From contig NZ_LT549890.1 of the NCBI RefSeq assembly GCF_900079115.1, positions 1,080,001-1,112,000 on the forward strand: a DNA stretch of 32,000 nt, in the 5' to 3' direction. Position 1 is the stretch's first letter. Every line of letters starts with the position of its first letter. The position numbers and the translations under genes are program-made. Positions 13,222-32,000 of this stretch are shown here, one piece after another. The stretch is from Saccharolobus solfataricus (GTDB taxonomy: Archaea; Thermoproteota; Thermoprotei_A; Sulfolobales; Sulfolobaceae). The notes beneath the pieces are model-generated. The model did no database searches. It was not told where the DNA came from and was given only the letters and a program-made list of their open reading frames with translations.

Positions 13222-13305
13222 CTGTAGACCGTAGTCAATGGCTTTCCCCAAATTTTATTCACCATTTAGCAAATCTCTTATTTTGCAGAACTGCTTTCTT
13301 CGTGT

Positions 13306-14367
13306 TTATCTATATTTTTTCGTAAATTTTTCTAACGTAGACTTATATATTAGATACGATGTTAGCCAAGTTATAGCAAATGTTCCTATGATTATGAATC
13401 CAATATTTTCCCAGTATATATTGCTAAGGAAGTTCACTTGATCCCAGAATGGTCCGGATAAGTTAAATTGACTTGTCACTAACCCTAATAACTCTATAGT
13501 ACCAACAAGATACGATACAATAATCGATATTAAAGTCATTGTTAGATTATACCATAACTTCCTGACTGGATCAGTGAACGCCCAGCCATAAGCTCCATTC
13601 ATGAAGAGACCATCAGTTGTATCTATTAATGTCATTCCTACTGTAAATAAGAATGGAAATACTAATAACGTATATAGCGGAACTTTTAGAAATATTCCAG
13701 CGGCTGCTGCAGAGATCGCAAGTAGTGCTGTTTCTGAAGCAGTATCAAATCCTAAACCGAATAGAAGACCAATTAAGTATAAATAATATTGGTTATTAAC
13801 AATCTTAAATAACTTACTGAAGTACTTATTCATAAAGCCTCTCTGCATCAGAACCTCCTCAAGTTTTCCCTTATCCACTTCCCTTTTCTTCAAATAAGCC
13901 TTGTATAAACGATATATTTCTAAAAGAACCAGGAAATTAAGAAAACCTATAATATATAGGAAACTACCACTTACTAAAGTCCCTATAATACTACCAAGCT
14001 TCTCTAGAAATGGGAGTTGTGATACTATATACCTAGTAGAAACTATTAAACCCAATGATAATAATATTACAATAGTTGAATGCCCAAGCGAGAAGAATAG
14101 ACCAGTAAATTGTGGGGGTTTACCCTCTTGTATTAACTTTCTGATCGAATTGTCTATTGCTGCCAAATGGTCAGCATCAACTGCATGTCTTAAACCCAGA
14201 AGGTATGACAAGATACCTAGGGTTAGGAAAGTTCCCACTATATGCTCCTCCTCTAAGCTCACTTTTACATTACTAACAACCCTTCCAGTGGTAAATAGCC
14301 AATAAAATAGTAATCCAGTTATAATGGCCTCCAATAAATAAAATATAACATACTTATTCCGATTCAT
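13306..14367 (-). CDS. NiCoT-family nickel/cobalt transporter (HoxN/HupN/NixA type)
   Basis: Carries the NiCoT signature RHAVDADHLAAIDN in TM2 and LGFDTASE in a later helix. 353 aa with 8 predicted TM helices. Confidence 0.85.
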   Translation of the reverse strand: MNRNKYVIFYLLEAIITGLLFYWLFTTGRVVSNVKVSLEEEHIVGTFLTLGILSYLLGLRHAVDADHLAAIDNSIRKLIQEGKPPQFTGLFFSLGHSTIVILLSLGLIVSTRYIVSQLPFLEKLGSIIGTLVSGSFLYIIGFLNFLVLLEIYRLYKAYLKKREVDKGKLEEVLMQRGFMNKYFSKLFKIVNNQYYLYLIGLLFGLGFDTASETALLAISAAAAGIFLKVPLYTLLVFPFLFTVGMTLIDTTDGLFMNGAYGWAFTDPVRKLWYNLTMTLISIIVSYLVGTIELLGLVTSQFNLSGPFWDQVNFLSNIYWENIGFIIIGTFAITWLTSYLIYKSTLEKFTKKYR

Positions 14368-14387
14368 GTATATAGATAGCTCTCTGC

Positions 14388-14397
14388 TTATTTAAAC
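14388..14397 (-). promoter_or_regulatory. TATA box for the NiCoT gene
   Basis: On the minus strand GTTTAAATAA sits 21-30 nt upstream of ATG 14367. Confidence 0.4.
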
Positions 14398-14516
14398 TTT
14401 ACTACTTATTTCGTTACGGATTCATACCAAAAATTAACTTTTACTTAGTTATATATATATTAATATATATTAAAAAATATAGTATTGATTAGCCATATTG
14501 TCTTATCCATTCTGCA

Positions 14517-15235
14517 GGGAGTGTTCTCATGCAGTCATCTTATTTGAGAAGTATTAGTAAAAATGTATCAGACTAGAGGTTTTTATAATTAGCCGTTTGA
14601 TCTGAAGATAGTTACGGGATTAGAAAGTGAAAGACTGACAGAAAAACTCATGTGCGAGGTTTTTGTGAGGGTTAGCAAGATGGACCTCTTAACCTATATA
14701 TAGAACGCCCCTCGCACAATTAATACTTATGATTCTAAGAAATTTAAATCTTAAGCCAAGAAAGTACGAGCTAAAGGATATTGCACTAGCATTAGCAGCC
14801 TACTCCTTGGGAGTTCAAATCACGAAAACAAGAATCCCACCATCAACCCTATCTTGAGGAAAATAGGGATAAGGAGGAGAAGAGATCAGCATGACCATCA
14901 TGTAACTCTAATAGAGTAGTGGAGAACGGTTCATCTAGAGGGAAAACTAAGTACAAGTACAAGACGTGTGGAAGGATATTTTACGACGCACTGGAGCACA
15001 GAATGGATAGGGAACAGAGGGAGAGAATCTTAAAGGAGTACTTAAACAAGATGAGCATGAGGGCAATATCCAGGGTTGAAGGTAAGTCATTAACTACGGA
15101 AGAGGTATACCACATAGGCCCTCGTTTTAACCAAGGCGTCTCGGTGACGCTTACTATGTTAATAACTATCATCAAGATACAAATGAATTGTGTTGTTTTT
15201 AATTCTATAAGGGGCTATTCATCCTCGCAGTAGGA
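14517..15235 (+). mobile_element. Degenerate, truncated IS remnant containing an IS1-type (InsA-like) zinc-finger/HTH transposase N-terminus
   Basis: The terminus GGGAGTGTTCTCATGCAGTCATCTTATT at 14517 is homologous to 12969-12999. The broken frames read ...PSCNSNRVVENGSSRGKTKYKYKTCGRIFYDALEHRMDREQRERILKEYLNKMSMRAISRVEGKSLTT, an IS1-like N-terminus. No catalytic domain follows. ORF 14919..15233 is a fragment of this remnant. Confidence 0.5.
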
Positions 15236-15361
15236 GTCTTCTGTCCCTTACCTCTTAATATAAATTTTTCAATGTAAAATTAACCCTATTAGTTATTAAA
15301 TATAGATCATTTGTTTAAACTCCTCTGTCTTCTAATGAGTATTTAGTCTAATATCAAAAAA

Positions 15362-15371
15362 GCTTTATTTG
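15362..15371 (+). promoter_or_regulatory. TATA box for hypA / Mrp-type hypB
   Basis: GCTTTATTTG is centred about 27 nt upstream of ATG 15393. Confidence 0.4.
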
Positions 15372-15392
15372 TGCAGAAAACAATTTAATACT

Positions 15393-15824
15393 ATGCATGA
15401 ATGGTCTATTGCCTACTCAATAGTTAAAACACTAACTGATAATTTTAACAAGAAAGTACTAAAAACTACATTAGTAATACCACATTTCTCATTTCTTGAC
15501 TTAGAAATACTTAAGGATGCATTTAATGAATTAAAGAAAGAAAATGGAATTACTCAAGATGCTGAGCTCGAAATTAAAATAGCTAAGCCTAGGTTTAGAT
15601 GTATGAATTGTAATAGGGAGTTCAGTCTGTCAGATGTTGAAAATCAACTAAGTAATGTTAGAAATCAATACGGTGAGGAATATCCTTTACACTTAATGCC
15701 AGAACTCTTCCCAACATTTTTAAAGTGCCCATATTGTGGTTCCCATGATATTGAAGCTAAGGGTCAAGAGATTTACATAGAGAATGTGGTGGAGGAAAGT
15801 GGATCCGTTGCGAGAACTAGCTAA
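15393..15824 (+). CDS. hypA: hydrogenase nickel-insertion protein HypA
   Basis: Has the N-terminal MHEWS motif (Ni site) and a zinc site from C70-x2-C73 (CMNC) and C112-x2-C115 (CPYC). Start set at the MHE methionine. The ORF track begins at an upstream TTG. Confidence 0.85.
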   Translation: MHEWSIAYSIVKTLTDNFNKKVLKTTLVIPHFSFLDLEILKDAFNELKKENGITQDAELEIKIAKPRFRCMNCNREFSLSDVENQLSNVRNQYGEEYPLHLMPELFPTFLKCPYCGSHDIEAKGQEIYIENVVEESGSVARTS

Positions 15825-16503
15825 GAGTAAGCTAAAAGGTAAGAAAGTTATTACGATAATGAGTAGTAAAGGCGGTGTCGGAAAAAGTGTAGTATCGGCC
15901 TTACTTTCACTTTCCTTAATATCATCTGTTACACTAATAGACATGGATATACATAGCATGGGAATAGCTAAGCTCTTTGGTATTGAGAATAGGAATCTAG
16001 AAGTATCAAAGGAGGGGATTGTACCAATAAAAATAAGAAACGTTAATCTAATCTCGCTTGCAAGTATTGTTAGAGATAGATATGTTATACTACCTGGTAG
16101 AAACCAAAGTAACGTTATGAGGGAATTGATAGCGTATTCGATAATAAATAGTGATTATGTCGTATTTGACTTACCACCAGGGTTGGGGGACGAGGTTCTA
16201 GTGTTGGAAGAGTTAACAGATTTTAAGCCAGTAGTAGTTACAACACCATCAAAGGTCTCAGTAAAGGTAGTTAAGAATTTGATAGAGTACATGAACGAGA
16301 GGGGAAAGAAATCATTGGTTGTAGTTAACATGTCTTACTTTAATTGTCATGGTGAAAGAGTATACCCATTTGGTTATTACGATGGCGAGGTAAACTTACC
16401 AATAGATCCTAACATAGAGGAATATATAGGTAAGATTCATGAATATTATGGAGAGGTGAAAAAGGTAATTGAGAAGGAGCTAATTCCTAAACTCGTTTTT
16501 TAA
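15784..16503 (+). CDS. Mrp/MinD-family P-loop ATPase, probable HypB functional equivalent
   Basis: Deviant Walker A VITIMSSKGGVGKSVVSA, plus DLPPGLGDE (Walker B/switch). The gene immediately follows hypA and overlaps it by 41 nt. Thermococcales use an Mrp/MinD-type ATPase with HypA. An alternative GTG start is at 15799. Confidence 0.7.
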   Translation: MWWRKVDPLRELAKSKLKGKKVITIMSSKGGVGKSVVSALLSLSLISSVTLIDMDIHSMGIAKLFGIENRNLEVSKEGIVPIKIRNVNLISLASIVRDRYVILPGRNQSNVMRELIAYSIINSDYVVFDLPPGLGDEVLVLEELTDFKPVVVTTPSKVSVKVVKNLIEYMNERGKKSLVVVNMSYFNCHGERVYPFGYYDGEVNLPIDPNIEEYIGKIHEYYGEVKKVIEKELIPKLVF

Positions 16504-17109
16504 AAACTCCCTTATTTTCTCATAAGCCTCCACTTCAACGTTTGTAGCGTTTTTGAAAAGGCTTACATAAAAATCAATTGATAGATTTAAATTTAGATGT
16601 TTATTATAGCCTAATTTCTCTGCTTCAGATTTATATAGTACCAATGGAATGGACATATTTCTAAACCTCACTTTAGTATAAACGAAATCTACTATGTGAT
16701 CTGTACCGCATTCTGCTATCAATTTCTTTTGGAATAGTTTAGAGGAAATATCATAGGGATTAATACCTATTACCTTCTCCTCACATAGATTATTAGTAAT
16801 AGTTACGATAAGCTGTTCATTGACTACCTTCTCACTATGTACTATTAAATCCCACTCCTTTAAGGTCTTTATGACATAATAAGGTGCGATCGCAACACTT
16901 GGTTTTACTATTGAAATAATAAGATTACCAAATTTTATTTTACCATTAAATATCTGTGATAAGATTACCTCTGATGGTAAATTCTCGATTAGATATCTTG
17001 CGGTTGGAATACTGCTAATCAAAGATATTAATCTGTCATTTATAACCCAAAAATTGTAGTTCTCGATGACAAGTAAGTTATAGGGAATTTCACCAATGAG
17101 ATTGACCAT
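16480..17109 (-). CDS. hypothetical protein, last gene of the hydrogenase operon
   Basis: 209-aa ORF, 22 nt downstream of the endopeptidase gene on the same strand. No motif recognised. Confidence 0.5.
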   Translation of the reverse strand: MVNLIGEIPYNLLVIENYNFWVINDRLISLISSIPTARYLIENLPSEVILSQIFNGKIKFGNLIISIVKPSVAIAPYYVIKTLKEWDLIVHSEKVVNEQLIVTITNNLCEEKVIGINPYDISSKLFQKKLIAECGTDHIVDFVYTKVRFRNMSIPLVLYKSEAEKLGYNKHLNLNLSIDFYVSLFKNATNVEVEAYEKIREFLKNEFRN

Positions 17110-17131
17110 CTTGTCATCTTCACTGGTTAAG

Positions 17132-17656
17132 TCAATTATTATTCACCACCCCGTAAAGCTTTTTAATTGTATCGTCTACGGTGACTTCGATCCCAAAATT
17201 CTTTTTCAAAAATTCGGTCAATGATAAAACTATTTGATCTAGTTTTCTTCTCAACTCCTCTGATAGTCCTAGCTTTACATCTAAGACATAAGGCTTACAG
17301 CCCACTAAGTATACTTCTGGAGCATAGCCCATGATCTTAAGAGTTGTTAAAATACTTTGTATCCCTACACCATGTGACCCTGAATACTCAAAATCTAATA
17401 CTGTAGAGGTCACCTCATCACTATCTATGTTAATGTCAATTCTACTTATATCGAAATCTTTATCCATCGCTACCGCATCAATTAAAATGATTATATCATA
17501 ATCTTTAAGTACTTCCATAGCTGATGCTCCAGCTGCTCCAAGATCTATAACATCACATCCCTTGACATTTCCGTATAGGGCTTCTGCCATATATGATCCA
17601 AATCCATCATCACCCATTAGCCTATTTCCAACTCCTACTATTGCTATCCTTTTCAT
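17132..17656 (-). CDS. hoxM: [NiFe]-hydrogenase maturation endopeptidase (HoxM/HybD/HyaD family)
   Basis: IAIVGVGNRLMGDDGFG (GxGNxxxxDDGxG), ILIDAV (Asp ligand) and SGSHGVG (His ligand). 174 aa. Confidence 0.85.
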   Translation of the reverse strand: MKRIAIVGVGNRLMGDDGFGSYMAEALYGNVKGCDVIDLGAAGASAMEVLKDYDIIILIDAVAMDKDFDISRIDINIDSDEVTSTVLDFEYSGSHGVGIQSILTTLKIMGYAPEVYLVGCKPYVLDVKLGLSEELRRKLDQIVLSLTEFLKKNFGIEVTVDDTIKKLYGVVNNN

Positions 17657-18424
17657 TTAAAAATCCCTCCAATACTTCTCACCTTCTGGAATAGGCTTCC
17701 AACTGGGCTTCTTTTGGGAATTCATTATCCTTCCGTGAAGTCTTACGAGCCTTGAGATCACTGGCATTAACTCCTCCCTCTCCTTAACTTGGTCTGTAAT
17801 CAATCTACCTACTAAATCCCTCGCCTTCAGCAAGTTGTCTGTAACGTCCTTCCATAATCCCCAGTCAGCTGAAGTGAGTTCTATAATTTTATTCCCCTCA
17901 ATATCGTATTTTAATAATAATGAGATCACATCTGATAAGTGTTTATCTAAAGCGAAATGAATCTGAAGCTTTGATAGTAATAAATCTTCCTCATTTAATG
18001 TAAACTCTGAGTTCCAATTAACTGGGATTACGTGGCTAAATCTCATTTCGTTGAAGTAATAAGCTCTTACCACTTTCTCTTCCTTGAAGAACATACTTAC
18101 AATATTTCCTAGTGTTTTCTCGAGGTGAAAGTATGGAGTGTAATCTAGATTGTACATAACTTGTTTAAACTTTTCCCTATCTTCAGTTCTTACTATGAAA
18201 TTAATGTCTTGAGGACCACTTCTTCTATACAACTTCATTATATCTGACGATAGTTTGTTATCCTTGACCTTATAGTAAACTGCGATGGATCCATAAAGTA
18301 AAGCAACTATCCCTTTCTCTTTACATTTCTCATATATTTTTTCAGCATCACTCAAATAATCATTAAACATCTTATTAACATCAATCTTTCTAAGTTGTGC
18401 ATCAAATGGGGAAATTCCAGACAT
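17657..18424 (-). CDS. hypothetical protein, possible nucleotidyltransferase-fold (NTP_transf_5 / KNTase-like) with helical C-domain
   Basis: 255 aa. LLYGSIAV...YRRSGPQDINFIV resembles the G[GS]...R...D.D.hh motif, but with Asn in place of the second Asp. The C-terminal helical part contains RLVRLH (an Rx4H-like string). The stop abuts the hoxM start. This is a weak by-eye call. Confidence 0.5.
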   Translation of the reverse strand: MSGISPFDAQLRKIDVNKMFNDYLSDAEKIYEKCKEKGIVALLYGSIAVYYKVKDNKLSSDIMKLYRRSGPQDINFIVRTEDREKFKQVMYNLDYTPYFHLEKTLGNIVSMFFKEEKVVRAYYFNEMRFSHVIPVNWNSEFTLNEEDLLLSKLQIHFALDKHLSDVISLLLKYDIEGNKIIELTSADWGLWKDVTDNLLKARDLVGRLITDQVKEREELMPVISRLVRLHGRIMNSQKKPSWKPIPEGEKYWRDF

Positions 18425-18471
18425 TATATTTACATATTATCTTAGTGATATATATTTTTACCTATATTTCT
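18425..18471 (-). promoter_or_regulatory. possible internal promoter within the hydrogenase operon
   Basis: This is the only sizeable spacer inside the 11-gene block (47 nt) and it is very AT-rich. On the minus strand AAAAATATATAT is centred about 29 nt upstream of ATG 18424. Confidence 0.3.
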
Positions 18472-18975
18472 TTATGTTTTTACTTTATCTAATAATTTTT
18501 CTAATTCGTTTAATAAACTTATAATATCAATAAAATTCTGTGATCTCTTTATAATCCTTATATACTTGTCTATTTGGATAGTCGTGAAATTCCTATTCAT
18601 CATTTTAAAATCTGGATCATTTGTAATTACAATTCCACAATTAGTGACACTACCAATTAATGGTAAAACGGAAGGTATCTGAAGTACTTTAGCAATATTA
18701 AAATCTCCCTCAACCTCTATATAAACCTCATAACTCCACACTATTTCATCCAATCTTAAAGAGTATCTAGCTTTAAGAAAATTTAATAGATCATTAACTA
18801 GTTTCTGAGACTCATCTCCAATAAACATGATCTGCTTTACGAAATTGCCACCTCTTTCATCTAATATTAGGTTAATCTTAACACCCCTAAAACTAAACTC
18901 TAAGGAACTTGTGTAAAAAAACGAATTAATAATTTCTCTAGGAATTGGTCTTAAAAAGGAAATTGTATAGACCAT
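18472..18975 (-). CDS. hypothetical protein (167 aa from ATG 18975; 185 aa if 19029 is used)
   Basis: ORF in the operon. ATG 18975 lies 5 nt after the upstream stop, whereas 19029 would overlap the upstream gene by 49 nt. No motif recognised. Confidence 0.5.
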   Translation of the reverse strand: MVYTISFLRPIPREIINSFFYTSSLEFSFRGVKINLILDERGGNFVKQIMFIGDESQKLVNDLLNFLKARYSLRLDEIVWSYEVYIEVEGDFNIAKVLQIPSVLPLIGSVTNCGIVITNDPDFKMMNRNFTTIQIDKYIRIIKRSQNFIDIISLLNELEKLLDKVKT

Positions 18976-18980
18976 TTCCC

Positions 18981-19427
18981 TTATTTTCCTAGCCTTCTTA
19001 ACACTTCCCTTTTCATCATTTCCTTGCATGTTTTACCCCACTTACTAATTTCTCCATCATTGTTCACAACTTCACATTCAATTACTATTAAATCTGGAGG
19101 TAAACTACCCATTACTCTAGCCATTTTAATAAAAGTATCAACATCCATGAAGTAAGCTTTCATTCCGCTATGAATTTCTAAAAAATCTGAAAAGGTGCTA
19201 CCATTAAACTCTGGTCTATATACTCTTAACTCCTCCTTCCCTCTCTTTTCACTTGCTAATAGAATAAGATTATCTAGATTAAGTTGAAATAAAAAAGTAG
19301 ATGCCTTAATTGCACCCAAACTTAAATCAATTACCTCAATACCCTCTAGTCTCATTTCTTCCATAACTAGCAATGGAATTTGATAATCTCCTTTATACCA
19401 ATAACCTATTGCTGCGATTTTTGGCAT
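18981..19427 (-). CDS. degenerate hydrogenase-endopeptidase paralogue (HybD-fold, metal ligands partly replaced)
   Basis: By-eye alignment to the adjacent HoxM. IAAIGYWYKGDYQIP aligns with IAIVGVGNRLMGDDGFG. IEVIDLSLGA aligns with CDVIDLGAAG. NLILLASE aligns with IIILIDAV (Asp to Ala). EIHSG aligns with SGSHG (His kept). PDLIVIECEV aligns with PEVYLVGCKP. Confidence 0.6.
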   Translation of the reverse strand: MPKIAAIGYWYKGDYQIPLLVMEEMRLEGIEVIDLSLGAIKASTFLFQLNLDNLILLASEKRGKEELRVYRPEFNGSTFSDFLEIHSGMKAYFMDVDTFIKMARVMGSLPPDLIVIECEVVNNDGEISKWGKTCKEMMKREVLRRLGK

Positions 19428-19750
19428 TTATTGGCACCTTTAGGTTTTATTGTTTCTGCTAGCTTCCATAATATATTTTCTGGGTTTTCAATATTTAAGG
19501 GAGTCACATTGCACGCTAATGCTGCTAACCTTCTTGATTCGCTTATCCTAATGTTCCTATTCTCTTTTATTTCTAAATTGAGGTTATACTCCCTTAAAAT
19601 CTCCTTTAGAATTGAAATTGAATCTTCTCTTTCCCTAATAACTGGGTAAATGAGTTCCTTAACACTTTGTTTAACATCTTCATCTAAAACTTTGGTTATA
19701 TCACTAATCATCTTGTCGAATCCTAAAATACGAAGTAGAAAACCACTCAT
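19406..19750 (-). CDS. hypothetical small protein (114 aa, helical and charged)
   Basis: The start codon overlaps the isp2 stop (ATGA at 19747-19750), which suggests translational coupling. No motif recognised. Confidence 0.5.
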   Translation of the reverse strand: MSGFLLRILGFDKMISDITKVLDEDVKQSVKELIYPVIREREDSISILKEILREYNLNLEIKENRNIRISESRRLAALACNVTPLNIENPENILWKLAETIKPKGANKCQKSQQ

Positions 19751-21018
19751 ATCTTTATCCCCCTATCCAGTAGCTCAGTAAAGTAGATCACTTTGAAATC
19801 GGCTTGTTTATCCTTTACTGCATTCTCTAGTGACAACATACAGTTAGGATCAAATACTATTACGCTCTTCCCTCCCCATTTGGTTAGCTGAGAAACGACG
19901 TAATTTCTAACTCTCTTCAGAATATCCTTTTTCTCACCTATCAATTCTACATGATGAGTACACGTGTATAATTTATCTGAAGATGGCTTCTCCTTAGGCT
20001 CAATGAATTGCGGAGCTGTTAGCCTTAATATCTCTCTAGGTGGCTCCTCAATACCACCCAGTCTACTGAGGAATTCTGAGTAGTGGACACTAGTAGGCGC
20101 TACTATATCAGCCTTTTCTAACTTTACTTTACCTTGCTTATACATGTCATACACAGTTTTGGTTAAATGTTCAACTTCTATTGGAGGAGTCTCCTTAATG
20201 CTCTTTGGACCTTGCCATCTTAGCCAGAAATACCCCATACCATCTGTGGTGATTATCTTTTTAACATTTAGTTTCATAGCAGTTTCATAAATTCTAACTA
20301 ATATACCTCTGGCAGTCTCAAAGTCACCCATAAGATATGCGTAATATCCTGGATCACTAATTTCAGAGCTTACAGTTACGCTGAGTTTTAGTTTACTTAA
20401 AACGCTTACGGTATTAGCCAAAACGTTAGTGTTTTGAATCTCCAAGGGTGAAGGAACATATAGTATTTCACTGTCCTTTTTATCTATATTAAAGCCTACC
20501 TTACTTGCTACTTCACCCCAATTTTCTATTCCAAATGCGTTTCCTTTTTCTTTAGAATTAATAATTAACTTCTCTGCACTTTCATAATTAAATCCAGAAT
20601 AGTGAAGAATCCTCCTCATTATTATAGCAGTATACCAATTTGGTACCTCCATTGGAGATGTATATGTACACGCTCCACATGCAGTACAATCATATGCAGA
20701 TTCAGTCCAATGTTTAAATTCATTTCCACTTATTCTTCTAAGCCTTAAATATCTAGCAACAATGCCATAACCAGTGTAAAACATTGAATATATTTTATTA
20801 ATTTCATACGTTCTCCAGGCTGGCACATCATAAAATTTCTTAGTTTCCTGCCAAAATGGGCATGAATAACTACAAATCCCACATCTCATACAATTCTCTA
20901 TTCCCATTACATCTGATGGAGTAAACTCATCAAAAGTCTTAGATGCTAATTTTCTATTTATTTCAACCTTTCCCTTACTCAACCTAAATCCCCCACATTT
21001 AAACTCTTCTTTTACCAT
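19747..21018 (-). CDS. isp2: Isp2-like Fe-S subunit (HdrD/DsrK-related) of the hydrogenase membrane module
   Basis: First ferredoxin motif CMRCGICSYSCP (C43, C46, C49, C53). Second motif CTACGACTYTSP (C111, C114, C117, with Ser121 where Cys is expected). The large C-terminal domain has no CC(G) motif. Start set at ATG 21018 (MVKEEF), a 20-nt overlap with isp1. The ORF track start is 21048. Confidence 0.7.
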   Translation of the reverse strand: MVKEEFKCGGFRLSKGKVEINRKLASKTFDEFTPSDVMGIENCMRCGICSYSCPFWQETKKFYDVPAWRTYEINKIYSMFYTGYGIVARYLRLRRISGNEFKHWTESAYDCTACGACTYTSPMEVPNWYTAIIMRRILHYSGFNYESAEKLIINSKEKGNAFGIENWGEVASKVGFNIDKKDSEILYVPSPLEIQNTNVLANTVSVLSKLKLSVTVSSEISDPGYYAYLMGDFETARGILVRIYETAMKLNVKKIITTDGMGYFWLRWQGPKSIKETPPIEVEHLTKTVYDMYKQGKVKLEKADIVAPTSVHYSEFLSRLGGIEEPPREILRLTAPQFIEPKEKPSSDKLYTCTHHVELIGEKKDILKRVRNYVVSQLTKWGGKSVIVFDPNCMLSLENAVKDKQADFKVIYFTELLDRGIKI

Positions 21019-21886
21019 ATACACTACCTGCAAATCCCTTCTGCACATAATACCAGAACATATGGAATGCCTTACTAAATGGCGTATATCCTATGAATAT
21101 TCCAATTAACGCTATGTGTAAACCATACCAGTTGGCTTGATTAGGTATACCTAGATATGGAAATCCCCAATCATATGCTGCCCCTAGACCAGTGATCATT
21201 ATGGCTGCTAATAATATTAAGAAAACGTAATCACCAACACTGCTAATCATTCTATGTCTGGTAGTATCATCAACTATTCTAGTAGCTAAATAACCTACTA
21301 AACCCGCTAATGCTAGCAAGGTCATAAAACTTCCATTAACTATTACTGATAATACACCCCATGGCGAAATTGTATTCGTTGCTACTTGAGCGGAATTCCA
21401 GGCTCCAACTGGATTCATTATTCCTCCTTGAGAATATGAATTTGGACCAAGTATTCCTATCTGATACCCTGAGGTAAATGACTCTGGTACTGATGCAGGC
21501 ATCAACCAACCAAGAATATTCTGAAGTCCGGTAAGTTCGCTATATATGTAGTTCCACGCTATAATGTGAATACCTACAACTATGATTAGACCTAATATGA
21601 AGATGTGGTTAAATATTGTCTCTAAGATCAATAATGGATCATTTTTAGCGGCTCTACCGAATGGTCTAGGAATCGCACTAACCGCTTCCTTAAATTCAGT
21701 AGCAAATCCAGCTTGTCCCTTTGTCGCGGCTCTTGAAAATAAAAATTCCCTAGCTATCCTATAAATAGCACCGAAAACAAAAAATATAATACCTATAGGG
21801 AAAATGACATCTAAGCCCCACCAATACAGACTTAATGGAGTCGCTGGACCACCATTTGCTCCTATTGCAGCATGGACTACTATCAA
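20999..21886 (-). CDS. isp1: Isp1-like integral-membrane di-haem b-type cytochrome (NarI/HdrE/DsrM family)
   Basis: Five or more TM helices. His pairs are H94/H107 in one helix (NHIFILGLIIVVGIH) and H257/H275, 18 residues apart, in the last helix. The last helix also carries the PFSKAFH motif typical of NarI-like proteins. The gene directly abuts the hynL stop. Confidence 0.7.
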   Translation of the reverse strand: MIVVHAAIGANGGPATPLSLYWWGLDVIFPIGIIFFVFGAIYRIAREFLFSRAATKGQAGFATEFKEAVSAIPRPFGRAAKNDPLLILETIFNHIFILGLIIVVGIHIIAWNYIYSELTGLQNILGWLMPASVPESFTSGYQIGILGPNSYSQGGIMNPVGAWNSAQVATNTISPWGVLSVIVNGSFMTLLALAGLVGYLATRIVDDTTRHRMISSVGDYVFLILLAAIMITGLGAAYDWGFPYLGIPNQANWYGLHIALIGIFIGYTPFSKAFHMFWYYVQKGFAGSVYGKRRV

Positions 21887-24145: not shown

Positions 24146-24146
24146 T

Positions 24147-25496: not shown

Positions 25497-25499
25497 TCT

Positions 25500-25545
25500 A
25501 CTCCCCTTTATTAGGTATATTAAAGTATACCATGTTTATAAATTT
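25500..25545 (-). promoter_or_regulatory. hynS promoter region: TATA-like boxes plus SD-like AGGGGAG
   Basis: On the minus strand TTTATAAAC (25534-25542) and TTTAATATA (25516-25524) precede AGGGGAG (25500-25506) and GTG 25496. Confidence 0.35.
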
Positions 25546-25585
25546 TTCTTATAAACTTGCTACATCATATTGTTTTATTTTTTAT

Positions 25586-26584
25586 TCACGATCTATGAGA
25601 ATAATAATAGAAGATCGGAAACAACGAAACGAAAAAGGGTGTAAGTGATAGTACCATAACTGCTGAGATTACATTGTAAAAATAAGCTACTGATGCTCCG
25701 AAGAGTAACTCTGAAACGGCTGGGAGTAAGGACAAGTAGGGAACTATTCTTACATTCACTTCTTTCCTACTCATATCTACATAATAAAACATCATTGATG
25801 TCATTAAAAGTGTTGCAATTGCGTATGGAATTTGATTGATTGTTAGGGAATAATAAAATTCTGTTGAAGAAAGGGAAAGACTGGATATGGCGAATAGTAG
25901 ATAATAGAACGTATTAATCCTTCCGCTAATATATTTATAAGAAAAATAAATTGTGAAGATTACTGAGAGAAGTAGTTCAAGTATGGAAGACTCTTTAATG
26001 GGATCGTACGGTAATGGAAGTATTGAATGCGTCATCTCCGAGGCTATGTTTGGTCCTGCAAATATTAGGGAAGAAAGAAGAAGCGAATAAATGTTTCTAT
26101 ATTTAAAACTTAAGTAAGCTATTTCTGGAAACACCATGAGGAAGAACATGAACGAGTTAACAACTTCTAGAATTGCTGGAATTATAATTTGGGATATCGA
26201 TAACGAGAAGCTTGGAATATCCGTTGCATAAAAGTATAGGCTATATAGAGATTTTGTTAAATTACCCCTTAGTATTACGTAATATAGTAAGCTCATTAGA
26301 ATCTCTTGTATAACTAAGGAGGACACTATGGCAAATTTGTATTTTCCGAGATTATAACTTATCTGCATTATTAGCCAGAAATAAACAACAATTATTAATG
26401 ACAACATAAAGTCCGATAGGGAGAATAGTACGAAATATACCGCAGTTGATATATAACTTATGAGAAGAAAAAGGTATCCTAGTTTGTTCTTTAACGCGAA
26501 TTTATATGACATAGTGACTAATATGGTCATCGCGGATATGTAAAATATATAGAATAGTACTAACAAGTGGGTTTCACTGTTCAT
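25586..26584 (-). CDS. polytopic membrane protein of unknown function (about 332 aa, about 10 TM)
   Basis: Extremely hydrophobic and rich in Y/F/S/L/I. Start moved to ATG 26584 (MNSETH) because a TTTATAA box is centred 27 nt upstream, and the track's ATG 26623 lies upstream of that TATA box, outside the predicted transcript. Same strand as hynS and 89 nt upstream of it. Confidence 0.6.
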   Translation of the reverse strand: MNSETHLLVLFYIFYISAMTILVTMSYKFALKNKLGYLFLLISYISTAVYFVLFSLSDFMLSLIIVVYFWLIMQISYNLGKYKFAIVSSLVIQEILMSLLYYVILRGNLTKSLYSLYFYATDIPSFSLSISQIIIPAILEVVNSFMFFLMVFPEIAYLSFKYRNIYSLLLSSLIFAGPNIASEMTHSILPLPYDPIKESSILELLLSVIFTIYFSYKYISGRINTFYYLLFAISSLSLSSTEFYYSLTINQIPYAIATLLMTSMMFYYVDMSRKEVNVRIVPYLSLLPAVSELLFGASVAYFYNVISAVMVLSLTPFFVSLFPIFYYYSHRS

Positions 26585-26670
26585 ATGTTTACTCTTCTCA
26601 AAAATAATTATAAAGTTTACCATAATATACCTAGTATAGCTTATTAACTACTAAAGTAATTAGAATTTAT
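26585..26670. promoter_or_regulatory. divergent promoter region
   Basis: 86-bp AT-rich spacer between divergent genes. TTTATAA (reverse complement of 26608-26614) serves the minus gene. CTTATTAA (about 26639-26646) lies about 27 nt before ATG 26671. Confidence 0.35.
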
Positions 26671-27927
26671 ATGAAATTTCTATCATGGAGGGAAGCAGTT
26701 AATGAAAATAAGAAGCTGATAGTGTTATTTATGACTACTAGTTGGTGCGAAAGTTGTGAAGAGCAAGAAAAGGAATTACTTGAAATCGAGGATGAAAGAG
26801 TTTCCCTAGTTAAGGAAGATGCTGATGAAAGGTTGGATTTAGCTGTAAGATATACACCCCAAATTTACCCAACAATTAGTCTAATATCTAAAAATTCTGT
26901 CATTGGGGGAACTTACGGCTTAGTAAAAAGGGGCAAATTGATAGAAATGATAAGTGAGGCCTTAAAGCTAATAGAGGGAAAGGGTAAGTTTATAGTTCCC
27001 CCTAAACTGTCTTCCCAAAAAATTGATAAATTCCCACCAGATTACGCATTTAACCATATCTTAAGGGTTTGTGAGGGATATTTTGATTGGAAAGAGGGAG
27101 GATTTGAGAGGGAACCAAAGCATGTTTCTCCAGAAGTATTACAGCTATTCTTGCATTTTAATGATTATTATCATAAGATAATGGTGGAAGTAACGTTAGA
27201 TAACGCTATAGAATATTTATGGGAAAATGGATTTTGTATGTTTTCCAAGTCAGGAGATTGGAAGGAACCCTATAAGGCTAAATTATTAGACTATAATGCT
27301 GAAATGGTTAAGACGCTTGTTAAGGCGTACCAAGTTTTGAAAAAGGAGATCTACCTAGATTACGCAATTGCTACTACTGACTGGTTATTGAGTAAGAGGG
27401 ACAATAGGGGTTACTTCATCAATGGTGAATTTCTTGGAGTAGAGGATAAGAGACCATTTCTCAACGTTAATGCTAATGTTGGAGACGCCTTCATGGAAGT
27501 TTATAGGATTACCAATGACAAGAAATATCTGGAGATTGCAAAAGACTTAGAACAGAGATTAGTATTAGCACATAGAATGGATGTACTTTCTCCTCCATAC
27601 TTGATAGATTTAGCCTCATACTTAAATTTCCTCTCTAAACTTAATCCAGATAAAGCTAGAAATTTATTGCATATACTTGACGATTATAAAGGAAGTGAGG
27701 CTTATTACGACACGACATTAGGGTTTGCTACGGAGAACAAGATAGGTAGGTTTTACTTCCTTTACGATAATGTTTTGCTAGCAAACGCATTGATTAACCT
27801 TAATATTTTTGAAGAAGCCAAAAGAATTGTAGATATGTTTCTCTCCTCATATAGCATTTACGTATATTTTAACCAAGCTAAGTATGCTCTAGTTTTGGGT
27901 GAAATTTATGGTCTCTTTACTCACTAA
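26671..27927 (+). CDS. thioredoxin-fold + alpha/alpha-toroid protein (short YyaL/DUF255-like)
   Basis: N-terminal thioredoxin-like segment KKLIVLFMTTSWCESCEEQEKEL (CxxC). A central GGFEREPKHVSPEVLQLFLHF resembles the GGFG.APKFP...L.FLL motif of YyaL-type proteins. The C-terminus is repeat-helical. Confidence 0.55.
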   Translation: MKFLSWREAVNENKKLIVLFMTTSWCESCEEQEKELLEIEDERVSLVKEDADERLDLAVRYTPQIYPTISLISKNSVIGGTYGLVKRGKLIEMISEALKLIEGKGKFIVPPKLSSQKIDKFPPDYAFNHILRVCEGYFDWKEGGFEREPKHVSPEVLQLFLHFNDYYHKIMVEVTLDNAIEYLWENGFCMFSKSGDWKEPYKAKLLDYNAEMVKTLVKAYQVLKKEIYLDYAIATTDWLLSKRDNRGYFINGEFLGVEDKRPFLNVNANVGDAFMEVYRITNDKKYLEIAKDLEQRLVLAHRMDVLSPPYLIDLASYLNFLSKLNPDKARNLLHILDDYKGSEAYYDTTLGFATENKIGRFYFLYDNVLLANALINLNIFEEAKRIVDMFLSSYSIYVYFNQAKYALVLGEIYGLFTH

Positions 27928-28384
27928 ACTATATTTTCTTCTGATAGGTTTAAGCCAATTACCATTTTTATATGAAATTACAGTTCTGCTTCATTCTACG
28001 ACATCTTTTCCACTTATATACATAAATTATAGCCTAGGGATAATAATTATAGTTACCCTCATTTGTAACCTATTCATGTTATTAGATGGTTATACTAAAT
28101 ACGCTTCTGTCCTCCTTCTTGTTCCAGTTATAAATGTATTTATTATACCTTTTATCTCGTATAAGTTAACATCATCTAAACTATTAACCGGAATTACCTT
28201 TTCCCTATGGTTTTCTAACTTAGTCTTCACATTAATCTCCAATGTACCTACAACAATCTATTATGGAAGTGGTAAGTATTTTCTAGATAAATTTATGGTC
28301 TTAGATTTTCTCTCAGTTGCGTCTCTTATAATTATTGGATATTGTGTTATTTATAAGGAAAAGAAGATTTCCAAAAATAGGTAA
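27899..28384 (+). CDS. small membrane protein (161 aa, about 5 TM)
   Basis: Hydrophobic ORF overlapping the upstream gene by 29 nt, which suggests co-transcription. Confidence 0.5.
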   Translation: MKFMVSLLTKLYFLLIGLSQLPFLYEITVLLHSTTSFPLIYINYSLGIIIIVTLICNLFMLLDGYTKYASVLLLVPVINVFIIPFISYKLTSSKLLTGITFSLWFSNLVFTLISNVPTTIYYGSGKYFLDKFMVLDFLSVASLIIIGYCVIYKEKKISKNR

Positions 28385-28422
28385 CATTATTAACAAAAAG
28401 TTTTTATAAAGAAGAGAGAAGA

Positions 28423-29382
28423 GTGCATGTGAAACTAAAAATAGTGTGTTCGATGTATATGTTTTTATTAGCGCTAATCCCTTCTACAGCTTTCTCCTTT
28501 GTAAATCAAGTAGGAGATTCTATTTTAATTGTAAATGAGCACAACTTAACAATATCTGGGCTCAACATATTTGAAGGAAATATAACAATTGTCAACTCAA
28601 GTAACATTGTCATAGAAAACAATAATATCTTAAATAGTTTTTATTTTGGTATTTTCGTATATAACTCTATAAATGTCACAATCTCAAATAATATAATTAA
28701 AAATTCCTATTATGACGGAATTTCCATAAGGAACTCCAAATACGTGGAGATTAAATATAATATTATTACAAATAATACCAATGGGAATGGGATTTCAGTT
28801 TGGGATGATAGCAAGTATATAAACATAAACAACAATAAATTATTGTATAACCTATACGGAATTTTTGTACTATCCAGCTCAAATGTTAGTATCTTCAATA
28901 ACAGTTTATCTAACATATACCATTATGGAGTATATCTCTATAACTCTAGTTTAACTAAAGTTCCTAATAATTCGATACGTAACTCCGATGTGGGGATAGA
29001 AATTATCATGGGAAATCTCATATCGATACAATCTAACGCTATACTAAATAATCTTGTTGGCATTTACATAGGAGAAAATATAGGAAACCTTACTATAATA
29101 GGTAATTTAATCCAAAACTCCAAGTATTTTGGGGTATTAATTTATAATTATCCTACCACTTTCATCTTCAAAACAAATGCCTTTATGAACAACGTCTTGA
29201 ACGTCTTTTATGCGTATAATTCAACAATTCCTAAGATAAGTGTTTCGAATTCAACTATATTAACAACGATAAAACAAAGCGATAGCCATCTCGTGAAACT
29301 TTCTCCCATTATACCATTGTTACTATTGATAATGATAGTATTCCTTGTCTACTTATTTCTATTTAGAAAAGGCAGAAGATAA
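28423..29382 (+). CDS. secreted/anchored right-handed parallel beta-helix repeat protein (NosD/CASH-like)
   Basis: Signal-like N-terminus (KLKIVCSMYMFLLALIPSTAFS). About 10 tandem repeats of roughly 22 aa of the form N-I-x-I-x-N-N-x-I (for example NVTISNNIIKNSYYDGISIRNS and KYVEIKYNIITNNTNGNGISVWDD). At least ten N-x-S/T sequons. C-terminal TM anchor followed by RKGRR. The true start may be GTG 28429 or ATG 28453. Confidence 0.7.
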   Translation: MHVKLKIVCSMYMFLLALIPSTAFSFVNQVGDSILIVNEHNLTISGLNIFEGNITIVNSSNIVIENNNILNSFYFGIFVYNSINVTISNNIIKNSYYDGISIRNSKYVEIKYNIITNNTNGNGISVWDDSKYININNNKLLYNLYGIFVLSSSNVSIFNNSLSNIYHYGVYLYNSSLTKVPNNSIRNSDVGIEIIMGNLISIQSNAILNNLVGIYIGENIGNLTIIGNLIQNSKYFGVLIYNYPTTFIFKTNAFMNNVLNVFYAYNSTIPKISVSNSTILTTIKQSDSHLVKLSPIIPLLLLIMIVFLVYLFLFRKGRR

Positions 29383-29607
29383 TGAATTTTCAAGTAAACT
29401 TCTCATTTCCTTTTCGTAATTTAACATTTCGATGTATTCTTCATTAGAAATCTTACTCACTATCATACCGTAACTCACAACAACGTAGTCCCCTTCTTTG
29501 ACATCATCAACATTATTTATAACAGGTTCGACCAATCCATTACCGTAATCTACGAAGGCTACTATTCCATTAATTTGAACAACTTTTGCAGGTAAACTTA
29601 TACACAT
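29359..29607 (-). CDS. hypC: hydrogenase assembly chaperone HypC/HupF family
   Basis: Essential N-terminal MCISLPAKVV (MC[LI][GAS][LIV]P) motif. 82 aa in an OB-fold-like pattern with GDYVVVSYGMIVSKI. Confidence 0.85.
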   Translation of the reverse strand: MCISLPAKVVQINGIVAFVDYGNGLVEPVINNVDDVKEGDYVVVSYGMIVSKISNEEYIEMLNYEKEMRSLLENSLSSAFSK

Positions 29608-29954
29608 AAGATAACAATGTTTTTAATACTTTTAAATCTTTATAACTCTTATGAGCTTATATGATTTAGAAATAATCGACCTAGACGTCAATATAAGGGA
29701 TGGGAAAGTAGTTAGTGCTAAGTGCTCTGGAAACAAGGTAAGAGGATTTGAAAAAGCATTTACGGGGAAAGATGCTAAAACGTTATATGAAGTTTTACCT
29801 AGAGTCTTAGCTACATGCAGCCAATCTCACCTTTACGTATATGTTAAACCTCATATCCAAACTTCAATAACTGAACTACTTATGTTTCTAGAAATCATTG
29901 ACAGTCATATGAAACACCCTTATGCTTACTGGTTTCCACATATAATTAAAGACG

Positions 29955-31395
29955 ACAGTGGTGTTTCACCAAATTATTTCATTTGAAAGATATAATATTA
30001 GCACTTTCAAAAAGAGATTGATATAGAGAAAAACAATAAAATTATTATGAAACATAACATGTTAAAATAATTTGCAAAAAATATAGCGTACAATTCTAAT
30101 AATAAGAGGAGAATTCTGAATTTTTCTCACGTGGTGAAAACGACGTGCATAGTCTCCTCTGAACACCGAGAAAGTTAGAGAAGCTTGACGAATGAATCGA
30201 AGGACAAAACCTTCTTACACGTGGACTTGAAGTTAAAGAGAAGATGATTCACTAGATTCCACGCAGAATCCAGAACCGTATAATAGAGGAACAAGAAGAT
30301 CTTATTACTCAACTTCCTAACATACCTTATCCTTGCCTTCCTAACCTTAAAACCCTCCTCAACCTGCCACCTCAACCTATAGAGTTCAGCCAGTTCATAG
30401 GGATCTCCCTCGAAGTTCGTTACGAACATGAAGTGCCTCGGCTTTCCCTTAACGTAAACCACATCGTAATAATAAAGCCCTTCAAATTCCAAGACCCTAT
30501 ACGCAACGTAAACCTTGTCCTTAACCTCGTATCTCTTCTCAACTAATGGAACGTTAGATAGTTCCTTGAATCCCTTCAAGTTCGACTTTCCTCTCACAAT
30601 GGTCTTCACGGGCATTTCCTTGATGACCCCTAGGTTCAAGAATCCGGCGTCAGCTACAACGTAATCTATTTCCATGTATTGGCTTACTTCCCTCACGCTC
30701 CTGAGTAGGAACTGTGATGGACTGTCGCTTCTCAAATCTGCTACCTCCACTAGGAGGGGTAACCTTAAGGGATATACGAGGTCCAAGGATCTCATCTTTA
30801 CTCCTTTTCTCTTCCAGTTGTAGAGTAGAAAGCCCTCTGCTTTTTCTTGTTCCTTTTCTCCCACGGTTAATCCGGTCTCATCTACAGCGACTACGTTGAT
30901 CTCTCCCTTTACTTCTCTGTAGATTGGGTAGAACTTGAAGGTTCTCTGACCTTTACTAATTACTTTCTCGCCTCGTCTTACTACCTTCAAGTAGTATTTT
31001 CCTCTGTTTCCGGTTAGCAAGGATGGTGCTGCTTTCACTATTTCCGGGTCTAGATCTTGAGAGATAACGTTAATATTGTTTGTTGCTAAAGTTATAGCGA
31101 GGGACTTCAGCTCCGTTTTGGATACTTGTATGGTTTGCATAACGGAGTTATGGAGTCCCTCGCTTTAACCTTTTCTTGTTCATCTCGTCCTTCCACCTAC
31201 TTTCCTCTATTGATAATACTAGACAAATGGTATTACTCTTTATATATAAACTCGTTTTCTGTTAGTTTCTTCAACAAATATGAAAATTTTTTGCTTCTTG
31301 TGTTGAAATAAGCCGATTTTTCTAACTCCGCTCTGATATTTTTCTCTTCCATAGAAATTGTATCATTTTGAGTAAAATTGGTGAAACACCACTGT
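29955..31395 (-). mobile_element. Insertion sequence, 1441 bp (ISC1439-like by size), DDE type
   Basis: Perfect 18-bp terminal inverted repeats: acagtggtgtttcaccaa at 29955-29972 and its reverse complement at 31378-31395. Perfect 7-bp target-site duplication AAAGACG (29948-29954 and 31396-31402). Confidence 0.9.
30175..31140 (-). CDS. DDE transposase (IS4-superfamily-like)
   Basis: 321-aa ORF inside the IS. Contains YVVADAGF (DDE Asp) and LYRLRWQVEEGFKVRK (the Y..RW.vE..Fk..K C-terminal signature). Confidence 0.8.
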   Translation of the reverse strand: MQTIQVSKTELKSLAITLATNNINVISQDLDPEIVKAAPSLLTGNRGKYYLKVVRRGEKVISKGQRTFKFYPIYREVKGEINVVAVDETGLTVGEKEQEKAEGFLLYNWKRKGVKMRSLDLVYPLRLPLLVEVADLRSDSPSQFLLRSVREVSQYMEIDYVVADAGFLNLGVIKEMPVKTIVRGKSNLKGFKELSNVPLVEKRYEVKDKVYVAYRVLEFEGLYYYDVVYVKGKPRHFMFVTNFEGDPYELAELYRLRWQVEEGFKVRKARIRYVRKLSNKIFLFLYYTVLDSAWNLVNHLLFNFKSTCKKVLSFDSFVKLL

Positions 31396-32000
31396 AAAGA
31401 CGAGAAGTACTCTTTCCCCTCAGGAGAAAAATTTAGAAAAGTGAGTTTAGTATCTAGAAAAATAAAAGAGATTATGGAGAAAATTGGAGGAAAGTGGCCT
31501 CATGTGGATTATTTAAAAGGTGAGAAAATTGTGAAAATTACAAAAGGAGAACTAAGAGATATAACAAGTTTTATGGAAAGTGAGTTACTTGGAATGTCAA
31601 TAGAGGACTTTCTTAACGTAAAAAGGTTGGAGGAATTATCTGGTGATCTAAAACTAATGGTGGAGAAAAGTATTGATTCGTTGAACTGGAATTTCGGGTT
31701 AAGGAATTATCTAGTAGTTGGATTTCCTTTTAAAAATACTGAATTTGATTGCAATTACATTAAGGATGAGGGACTAGAGGTAAGTTATAAGGGTAAAAAG
31801 GTTGAAGTTGGACCATTGGCTCAAGCTTTAACTTTTGATAAATTAGTCAAAAGCTATTTTAATAAATATGGTCCTTCACCACTACTTAGGGAAATATCTA
31901 GGATTAAAGTTGCTGTGAAACTAATAAGCGAGATTAACGATTTAGATATAAGTAGTGAAAGATTTTCGATTTCAGATGGCAATTACGTTTCTTTTGCCGA

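Follow-up and report, generated by a model that had tools for sequence, protein, structure and literature searches.

A probable SUL2-type uptake [NiFe]-hydrogenase system in a strain-variable, insertion-sequence-scarred region of Saccharolobus solfataricus

SUL2 (Hsu2) is a clade of [NiFe]-hydrogenases that is exclusive to Sulfolobales, is less than 30% identical to groups 1h and 1g, and has the gene order hsuS2-hsuL2-isp1-isp2 (Leung et al. 2024, PMC11018855). In Acidianus brierleyi it dominates as the aerobic membrane hydrogenase, making up 92–99.9% of the hydrogenase protein and occurring in active membrane bands (PMC11018855). We examined a 32,000-nucleotide stretch of the Saccharolobus solfataricus genome (contig NZ_LT549890.1, positions 1,080,001 to 1,112,000 of the forward strand; hereafter the window), in which an initial annotation had described a [NiFe]-hydrogenase island bounded by insertion sequences (IS), from position 13306 to the right end. 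We found that this block is very probably the S. solfataricus copy of the SUL2 uptake hydrogenase system together with dedicated accessory genes. The SUL2 operon is predicted from its sequence to be intact and to encode a membrane-bound, outward-facing enzyme, and the region that holds it is strain-variable and IS-scarred. This reading builds on gene content, motifs, topology signals, clade membership and synteny, all of which were observed directly. The system is real but of a kind already described in 2024, its exact large subunit is already in the published phylogeny, and the classification adds nothing new; what is new is the anatomy of the S. solfataricus locus, its disruption by the element ISC1439, and the recognition of the disrupted gene as a member of a conserved, non-canonical large-subunit-like family.

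Every gene listed in the initial annotation was found at its coordinates, with profile scores far beyond chance. The window proteins were exact matches to the S. solfataricus entries SAI84822–SAI84854 of LT549890, which we take to be the genome of strain P1. No frameshift was found in the listed genes or in the motifs on which their naming depended, and identical proteins occur in 30–66 independent assemblies.

The SUL2 operon and its membrane module

The large-subunit gene hynL (hsuL2; 21887–24145, minus strand) encodes a protein of 752 amino acids (aa) that starts with MASSYLFKYDW and carries the motifs RECGICGEHH and DPCFVCGVH, the latter followed by a 34-residue tail; all four Ni–Fe cysteines are invariant among relatives. 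HynL appears as NZ_LT549890.1_1268 (GCF_900079115.1) among the supplementary sequences of Leung et al. 2024 (PMC11018855), an identity judged on the printed sequence over about the first 400 residues. In the published Newick tree this protein lies within the SUL2 clade with 100% support, together with A. brierleyi DFR85_RS30060, A. infernus, M. sedula, M. yellowstonensis, A. copahuensis and Sulfurisphaera (Leung et al. 2024, PMC11018855); the placement is the one given by that published tree, which holds this exact sequence. Of groups 1e, 1g and 1h, named in the initial annotation as references for classification, the enzyme belongs to none. The relatives returned at 55–97% identity by a word-index search, which distant group 1g sequences could escape, were all from Sulfolobaceae (Sulfurisphaera 90%, Sulfolobus sp. 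A20 79%, Acidianus 68%, down to 55%), and below them identity falls to about 30%, to actinobacterial-type group 1h. In the table of Leung et al. the best HydDB match of this protein is a group 1g enzyme at 29.3% identity (PMC11018855), so that SUL2 appears roughly equidistant from 1g and 1h. Among solved structures the best match of HynL was 5AA5 (group 1h HofG, 6e-49), with other hydrogenases at about 1e-12 or worse.

The small-subunit gene hynS (hsuS2; 24147–25496, minus strand; PF14720 6e-23, PF01058 2e-10) encodes a twin-arginine translocation (Tat) signal with the motif RRDFMK, matched by TIGR01409 at its cut-off, and a single C-terminal transmembrane helix at residues 410–428. These two signals bear out the prediction that the complex faces outward. 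The best structural match of HynS was again 5AA5 (group 1h HofK, 8e-38). At residues 63–66 of all four SUL2 orthologues the canonical proximal-cluster CxxC is replaced by C-G-G-N, which aligns with C-D-G-D of HofK, suggesting that the proximal Fe–S cluster of HynS is probably non-standard.

The genes follow one another as hynS (25496–24147), hynL (24145–21887), isp1 (21886–20999) and isp2 (21018–19747), with gaps of 0–1 bp or overlaps. This is the order that defines SUL2, and it is also found in the Sulfolobaceae archaeon RB850M, Metallosphaera yellowstonensis and Candidatus (Ca.) Acidianus copahuensis. Both partners of the expected Isp-type membrane module were recognised by profiles. The isp1 product (20999–21886, minus strand) is an integral-membrane cytochrome b-type anchor of the NarI/HmcE/TmcC superfamily (TmcC 2.5e-11, HmcE 2e-7, QmoC 2e-5; NarI was matched weakly) with at least four strong transmembrane segments by hydropathy, and its five invariant histidines, at 94, 107, 211, 257 and 275, would be enough for two b-haems. 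The isp2 product (19747–21018, minus strand) is a cytoplasmic Fe–S subunit of the DsrK/HmcF/TmcB kind (DsrK model NF045796, 8e-31). Its Pfam matches were Fer4 domains only, and no CCG domain was detected even at E up to 10. The invariant cysteines lie at 18, 53/56/59/63, 121/124/127, 363 and 403, and they make up one CxxCxxCxxxCP and one CxxCxxC motif; the other conserved cysteines are just C18, C363 and C403.

The initial annotation had offered a quinone- or thiol-linked complex. The quinone link is supported by the NarI/HmcE-like cytochrome b with its five histidines. A thiol/heterodisulfide (HdrD-like) link through Isp2 was considered and rejected, because Isp2 is without CCG cysteine motifs and has too few conserved cysteines. 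The motif content agrees with published modelling, in which Isp2-2 holds two [4Fe-4S] clusters only, without the HdrB-like cluster of the 1g protein (Leung et al. 2024, Supplementary Note, PMC11018855). Clade, gene order, and an Isp2 predicted to carry two [4Fe-4S] clusters and to be without the HdrB-like non-cubane cluster place the locus in SUL2. We also observed an invariant C-x-H-H at Isp2 residues 363–366; like the lone invariant C403, it lies in the C-terminal half, where a CCG domain is absent, and the two might make up an additional metal or substrate site.

The locus shares with SUL2 of A. brierleyi and M. sedula (PMC11018855) the clade, the order hsuS2-hsuL2-isp1-isp2, the Tat signal and anchor on HynS, an Isp2 with two cubane clusters only, less than 30% identity to 1h, and an aerobic Sulfolobales host. 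It differs from both in being known from its genes, in its IS-scarred variable surroundings, in a split large-subunit paralogue, and in a group 2e partner that appears damaged.

By analogy with A. brierleyi, from which subunit assembly, aerobic role and electron path are carried over (Leung et al. 2024, PMC11018855), the system might work as follows. Nickel would enter through a NiCoT permease, and HypA with an Mrp-type ATPase would load it into a pre-HynL already holding Fe(CN)2CO delivered through HypC, with hypF just beyond the window and hypD and hypE presumably placed elsewhere. HoxM would cleave the 34-residue C-terminal tail off HynL, and the HynSL dimer would be exported by Tat on the RRDFMK signal of HynS and tethered to the membrane's outer face by the C-terminal helix. 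H2 would then be oxidised outside the cell, the electrons passing through three HynS Fe–S clusters to the Isp1 haems, the quinone pool and the terminal oxidases, and Isp2, on the cytoplasmic side with two [4Fe-4S] clusters, may hand some electrons to a cytoplasmic acceptor. The model that we currently favour, by inference, has Isp1 reducing quinone and a side path leading into the cytoplasm by way of Isp2.

ISC1439 and the split large-subunit paralogue

The live-looking IS noted earlier inside the island proved to be ISC1439 (29956–31394, minus strand; 1439 bp). It has an intact gene for a 321-aa transposase at 30175–31140, 20/21-nt inverted ends, and a perfect 9-bp target duplication, TAAAGACGA, at 29947–29955 and 31395–31403; its DDE transposase matches AAK42944.1 ('Transposase ISC1439') exactly. 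Together with the terminal inverted repeats and the target-site duplication, the transposase identifies the element as ISC1439 (ISH3-like) of S. solfataricus, with which it shares the transposase, the 1439 bp implied by the name, the inverted ends and the 9-bp duplication. No difference from known copies was seen, making this a standard copy at a new site. Four contigs carry the empty site, and IS-free assemblies are 100% identical to window 15126–29955 and 31395–32000. ISC1439 was lacking in all but one of the contig contexts around hypC, and the remaining contig stops before the site.

The element cuts a plus-strand gene for a large-subunit paralogue. Residues 1–101 are encoded at 29651–29955, a piece 100% identical to an intact 388-aa gene in two contigs, and residues 102–300 at 31404–32000, where the gene runs off the window and the translation matches the intact protein from residue 103. 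A large-subunit paralogue had been noted in the initial annotation and is present; it does not qualify as a second catalytic subunit, being IS-split and non-canonical, with two of the four Ni–Fe cysteines. Its family comprises proteins of 379–393 aa in Saccharolobus, Sulfurisphaera, Acidianus and Metallosphaera, in which PRVL(A/S)TCxQSH replaces RxCGxCxxxH and SLD(T/S)CF (here SLDTCFVT) replaces DPCxxCxxH. Both replacements are invariable in the family, so that one Cys is kept per motif pair, and the count of two in four holds across 25 sequences; the C-terminus, KR(I/V)GGFC, is invariant. With this set of ligands the paralogue is predicted to be unable to bind a canonical Ni–Fe centre. Its structural model is a compact large-subunit fold (predicted local distance difference test, pLDDT, 92.6) with the Huc large subunit 7utd_A as best match (TMq 0.75). 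By sequence the nearest relatives are group 2 large subunits, and an NCBIfam scan returned large-subunit models only. The paralogue motif strings were not found in the part of the supplementary sequences of Leung et al. that was searched.

A large-subunit-like fold with an incomplete Ni–Fe cysteine set is a feature of HupK/HoxV, which are catalytically inactive, large-subunit-like Fe(CN)2CO carriers that work with HypC paralogues in bacteria making hydrogenase with O2 present. Compared by description only, the paralogue resembles the HupK/HoxV of aerobic Pseudomonadota in being large-subunit-like, without canonical metal-centre binding and about 37–44 kDa in size, and in having its gene beside a HypC-family gene in a host that makes hydrogenase in air; it differs in its archaeal host, one Cys per motif, an invariant KRIGGFC, and nearest relatives in group 2. 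By analogy, we tentatively suggest that it may be an undescribed archaeal counterpart of HupK/HoxV, an Fe(CN)2CO scaffold for assembling [NiFe] sites in air at high temperature. If it were correct, the ISC1439 insertion would be a natural knock-out that could be compared with IS-free sister stocks.

Strain distribution and competing readings

Among named S. solfataricus genomes the proteins were found only in LT549890; the clusters at 90% identity held no accessions of P2 (AAK) or of 98/2-derived strains (AKA, AZF). The S. solfataricus genome CP050869 is identical up to window 13759, where ISC1173 copies truncate the nickel permease gene and unrelated genes follow. The genes to the right of this ISC1173 pair have no counterpart of at least 90% identity in LT549890, and a simple IS-mediated deletion relating the two genomes was therefore rejected. 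In S. islandicus, hydrogenase genes have been noted as HVE10/4-specific 'clusters of atypical genes'. S. islandicus L.S.2.15 keeps isp1 through hypA, whereas hynS and the greater part of hynL are missing and the break falls at window 22202; L.D.8.5 and LAL14/1 keep fragments. The L.S.2.15 remnant (CP001399; L083 6343–13032) consists of a 64-aa open reading frame for the HynL C-terminus, isp1, isp2, a broken orf114, and orf148 through hypA; the upstream genes are gone.

The enzyme was compared with three other described groups. For both subunits, group 1h (Ralstonia eutropha HofKG, 5AA5) supplies the highest-scoring relative among solved structures and in the database, and it too has the second Cys of the proximal CxxC replaced (C-D-G-D in HofK, C-G-G-N here), but it is about 600 aa long and only about 30% identical. 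To our knowledge group 1h is without a Tat signal, membrane anchor, cytochrome b or Isp partners, whereas RRDFMK, a C-terminal transmembrane helix and isp1 are present here; Leung et al. likewise place SUL2 outside 1h (PMC11018855). The Isp-type group 1e (Allochromatium, Thiocapsa Hyn) shares the Isp1/Isp2 electron-transfer module but is bacterial and ordered hynS-isp1-isp2-hynL, and the Allochromatium large subunit 3myr scored 4e-10 against HynL, compared with 6e-49 for the 1h structure. The remaining candidate is a group 1g Isp hydrogenase of the Acidianus ambivalens type, which would feed the sulfur reductase SreABC in anaerobic H2/S0 respiration. As reported (Laska et al. 2003), that enzyme is, like the present one, membrane-bound, Tat-exported and anchored, with a cytochrome b Isp1, an Fe–S subunit Isp2, and hoxM in the operon; reports place sreABC clusters in both S. 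solfataricus and S. islandicus, and the best HydDB match is a 1g enzyme, at only 29.3%. Group 1g is characterised by isp1-isp2 between hynS and hynL, a HynL of 628 aa, an Isp2 with an HdrB-like non-cubane cluster, hynYZ and hypDCE in the operon, and a role in anaerobic sulfur respiration. In the window, however, the order is S-L-isp1-isp2, HynL has 752 aa and does not group with the A. ambivalens and Vulcanisaeta enzymes, the operon contains no hynY, hypD or hypE, Isp2 is without the non-cubane cluster, and the published tree separates SUL2 from 1g. Gene order, size, Isp2 motifs and the published tree all spoke against the A. ambivalens-type identity, which was rejected, and we regard a 1g sulfur-respiring enzyme as highly improbable.

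Granted a SUL2 operon, the locus might still be a decaying relic, with genes present but no active hydrogenase, maturation compromised and the whole being dismantled by IS. Several observations weigh in that direction and against a functional system. ISC1439 splits the conserved large-subunit-like gene beside hypC and hypF, which is intact at 388 aa in IS-free assemblies and annotated in LT549890 as fragments only. A second island gene also appears damaged, because the adjacent group 2e-like large subunit is annotated at 394 aa in LT549890 (SAI84849.1) against 503 aa in IS-free assemblies (L003 2075–3586). A search of nine loci (SUL2 synteny, S. islandicus-type and right-flank contigs, and CP050869) for signature motifs of hypD and hypE was negative, CP050869 has lost everything right of window 13759, the three S. 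islandicus strains named above hold remnants only, and a review had stated that no hydrogenase genes are known in S. solfataricus or S. islandicus. Yet the SUL2 operon, hypA, mrp and hypC are all full length and do not differ between dozens of assemblies, the motifs for the metal ligands are undamaged, and the IS insertion is recent, has a perfect duplication and is lacking in the contig contexts that reach the site. We consider a relic possible, though doubtful; H2 oxidation by the source strain is predicted from the intact operon, and the damaged neighbours and the unlocated hypD and hypE urge caution. The origin of the block is a separate matter. A recently acquired mobile island delimited by IS, as the initial annotation framed it, would fit the ISC1173-like debris exactly at the left edge of the conserved block, the 'atypical' HVE10/4 clusters that were called strain-specific, and the patchiness among strains. 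It fits poorly with a window in which no integrase, tRNA or flanking direct repeats were found (tRNA and Rfam scans were both empty) and whose guanine–cytosine (GC) content is typical of the genome, with no compositional anomaly. Moreover, the branching of the SUL2 tree follows the genera, Sulfolobaceae share a conserved gene order, partial remnants at the same locus in other strains indicate loss, CP050869 differs by replacement rather than clean excision, and the right edge was not seen. Strain-specificity holds as patchiness within Saccharolobus, whereas the mobile-island framing is unlikely. Patchy remnants, a genus-congruent SUL2 tree and Sulfolobaceae-wide synteny lead us to favour an ancestral Sulfolobaceae trait with vertical inheritance and repeated, IS-associated differential loss. 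Set in an IS-rich variable region, the SUL2 locus is undergoing erosion, and in this genome ISC1439 has split the large-subunit-like paralogue.

Companion genes and flanking regions

The minus-strand operon runs from the membrane protein gene through hynS, hynL, isp1, isp2, orf114, orf148, orf185, orf255 and hoxM to orf209, and its junctions are adjacent or overlapping. Probably its first gene is that for a 345-aa polytopic membrane protein upstream of hynS (25586–26623, minus strand; at least six transmembrane segments, no family match), homologues of which, 41–46% identical, lie near SUL2 in RB850M and Ca. A. copahuensis. Downstream of isp2 comes orf114 (19406–19750, minus strand), a small conserved accessory protein with homologues in the same position in these two genomes. 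It is followed by orf148 (18981–19427) and by orf185 (18472–19029; orf167 in the initial annotation), both on the minus strand; orf185 is a conserved accessory protein without a family match that comes after isp2 and orf114 in the RB850M, M. yellowstonensis and Ca. A. copahuensis loci (orf114 itself in RB850M and A. copahuensis). The conserved accessory protein orf255 (17657–18424, minus strand), labelled 'nucleotidyltransferase family' in source records, had no significant Pfam match, and homologues 42–60% identical stand beside SUL2 in three other genera. hoxM (17132–17656, minus strand; PF01750 1e-12, TIGR00072 6.5e-25) encodes the canonical large-subunit C-terminal endopeptidase, and orf209 (16480–17109, minus strand), the last operon gene, a conserved accessory protein without a family match, whose homologues near SUL2 genes are 49% identical in RB850M and 24–27% in Metallosphaera and Acidianus.

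The AlphaFold model of orf148 (pLDDT 91.6) has a HybD/HycI endopeptidase fold, and in a Foldseek search the top 11 PDB matches were all hydrogenase maturation peptidases (including 5ttx, 1cfz and 5zby; E 1e-7 to 7e-5, TM-scores 0.54–0.68). A profile–profile comparison with HoxM, built on shallow alignments, was not significant, and similarity at the sequence level was marginal; the link of orf148 to maturation endopeptidases is thus one of predicted fold. Because HoxM is canonical and the modelled fold of orf148 is of the HybD/HycI type, the operon appears to encode a canonical protease and a second, divergent protease-fold protein.

On the plus strand, hypA (15393–15824; PF01155 7.6e-21, NF003008 9e-24), for a nickel metallochaperone, is paired, as had been proposed, with the gene of an Mrp/MinD-family (ParA) P-loop ATPase (15799–16503; PF10609 7.8e-37), likely a HypB-type partner of HypA. 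This adjacency is kept in four S. islandicus-type loci. Upstream of the operon, a divergent three-gene unit occupies 26671–29382 on the plus strand. It encodes a protein that combines a thioredoxin fold at the N-terminus with an (alpha/alpha)6-like domain (26671–27927; PF00085 3e-8, PF07944 1e-6), homologues of which, 39–52% identical, adjoin SUL2 genes in all four lineages examined; a small protein of about 158 aa with five transmembrane segments, conserved in RB850M (27908–28384); and a membrane-anchored NosD-like right-handed beta-helix protein (28429–29382; PF13229 1e-25, PF05048 1e-19) with transmembrane segments at both ends, an N-terminal signal and a C-terminal anchor. It is followed by the gene of a hypC/hupF-family chaperone (29359–29607, minus strand; PF01455 1.5e-14).

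In RB850M all 20 kb are arranged collinearly. The order hynS-hynL-isp1-isp2 is also retained by M. yellowstonensis and Ca. A. copahuensis, where orf114 (in A. copahuensis) and orf185 come next, with homologues of orf255, orf148, orf209, the thioredoxin-like protein and the 345-aa protein within 10 kb. Since their homologues sit near SUL2 in other Sulfolobaceae, the unnamed operon genes can be regarded as conserved companions of SUL2. The sampling of synteny was limited, because a profile search of genome contigs with the HynL alignment gave four SUL2 loci only, besides many weak bacterial N-terminal matches.

To the right, IS-free contigs showed that the cluster runs at least 18 kb past the window, and the right border lies outside it; the description 'IS-bounded' is borne out at the left edge only. 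As the initial annotation had it, hypD, hypE and hypF are outside the window; hypF begins about 262 bp past its end (window-equivalent 32262–34490, minus strand), to the right of the paralogue remainder. The right flank also contains genes for a DUF1641 protein, possibly a HucM-like subunit, an HxlR regulator and an FmdE-like protein, and a second hydrogenase; its large subunit has 503 aa and its small one 325 aa, and its best PDB match was Huc (2e-104). Its S. islandicus orthologue is labelled group 2e in the tree of Leung et al. (PMC11018855). In the same variable block, a right-flank contig (L087 11299–17760) carries another gene for a ParA/CbiA-type ATPase as well as five genes for an SBP_bac_5 ABC transporter that may import nickel or peptides; they correspond to the HVE10/4 cluster described as 'hydrogenases and ABC transporter'.

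A SUL2 and group 2e pair has been proposed to drive aerobic, possibly atmospheric, H2 oxidation in Acidianus and Metallosphaera. The principal genetic models for thermoacidophilic archaea are S. solfataricus and S. islandicus, two species usually said to be without hydrogenases; some of their strains natively hold such a pair. These native carriers would be tractable hosts for the question of which hydrogenase does what, a purpose for which heterologous expression in Sulfolobus has been proposed (Leung et al. 2024, PMC11018855). Natural variants provide a ready allelic series: the IS-split paralogue, the truncated group 2e subunit, the island-less strains and the L.S.2.15 deletion remnant.

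The left border had been described as one range of IS debris, 12961–15235. IS debris is indeed present, in two ISC1173-like patches that flank an intact nickel permease gene rather than in a single range. The first patch (12971–13247), between a thiamine pyrophosphate (TPP)-enzyme gene and the permease gene, is an end fragment of an ISC1173-like (IS1-family) element or a miniature inverted-repeat transposable element; it shares 90–92% identity with the initial ~183 bp of the CP050869 copies of ISC1173, and has a 39-bp internal match at 13209–13247. The permease, NicO (13306–14367, minus strand), is of the NiCoT (HoxN/NixA) type (PF03824 4e-100; TIGR00802 331 bits), and shows six or more hydrophobic segments in its hydropathy profile; at the DNA level its identity to the NicO near S. 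islandicus-type clusters is only 67%. The second patch (14516–15097) is what is left of an ISC1173-like element, diverged and truncated: it retains one inverted end and the 5' half of a transposase gene, and is 81–85% identical to ISC1173 of CP050869. DNA identity of 92–93% to the S. islandicus-type clusters starts at 15258, directly past this element, so that IS debris forms the left edge of the conserved hydrogenase block. Two short-read contigs break at 15014–15126. In S. islandicus-type clusters (L084 13183–17361), about 3 kb separate hypA from NicO and encode a 4HBT thioesterase, an HpcH/HpaI aldolase and a GntR regulator; at window 14368–15368 this stretch is replaced by the ISC1173-like debris.

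Two further mobile elements lie farther left. A 1,228-bp IS at 6506–7733, with perfect 19-bp inverted ends (GAGAGTGTCCGGAATGTAA), an ACGT 4-bp duplication and a 319-aa DUF772-type transposase, is not in the otherwise identical CP050869, and it accounts for part of a high-GC patch. At 4862–6256 (45–49% GC), a C-terminal Cas12f/TnpB fragment (4862–5137) abuts a DUF4322 and DDE transposase gene (5126–6256), and this stretch is common to both S. solfataricus genomes, LT549890 and CP050869.

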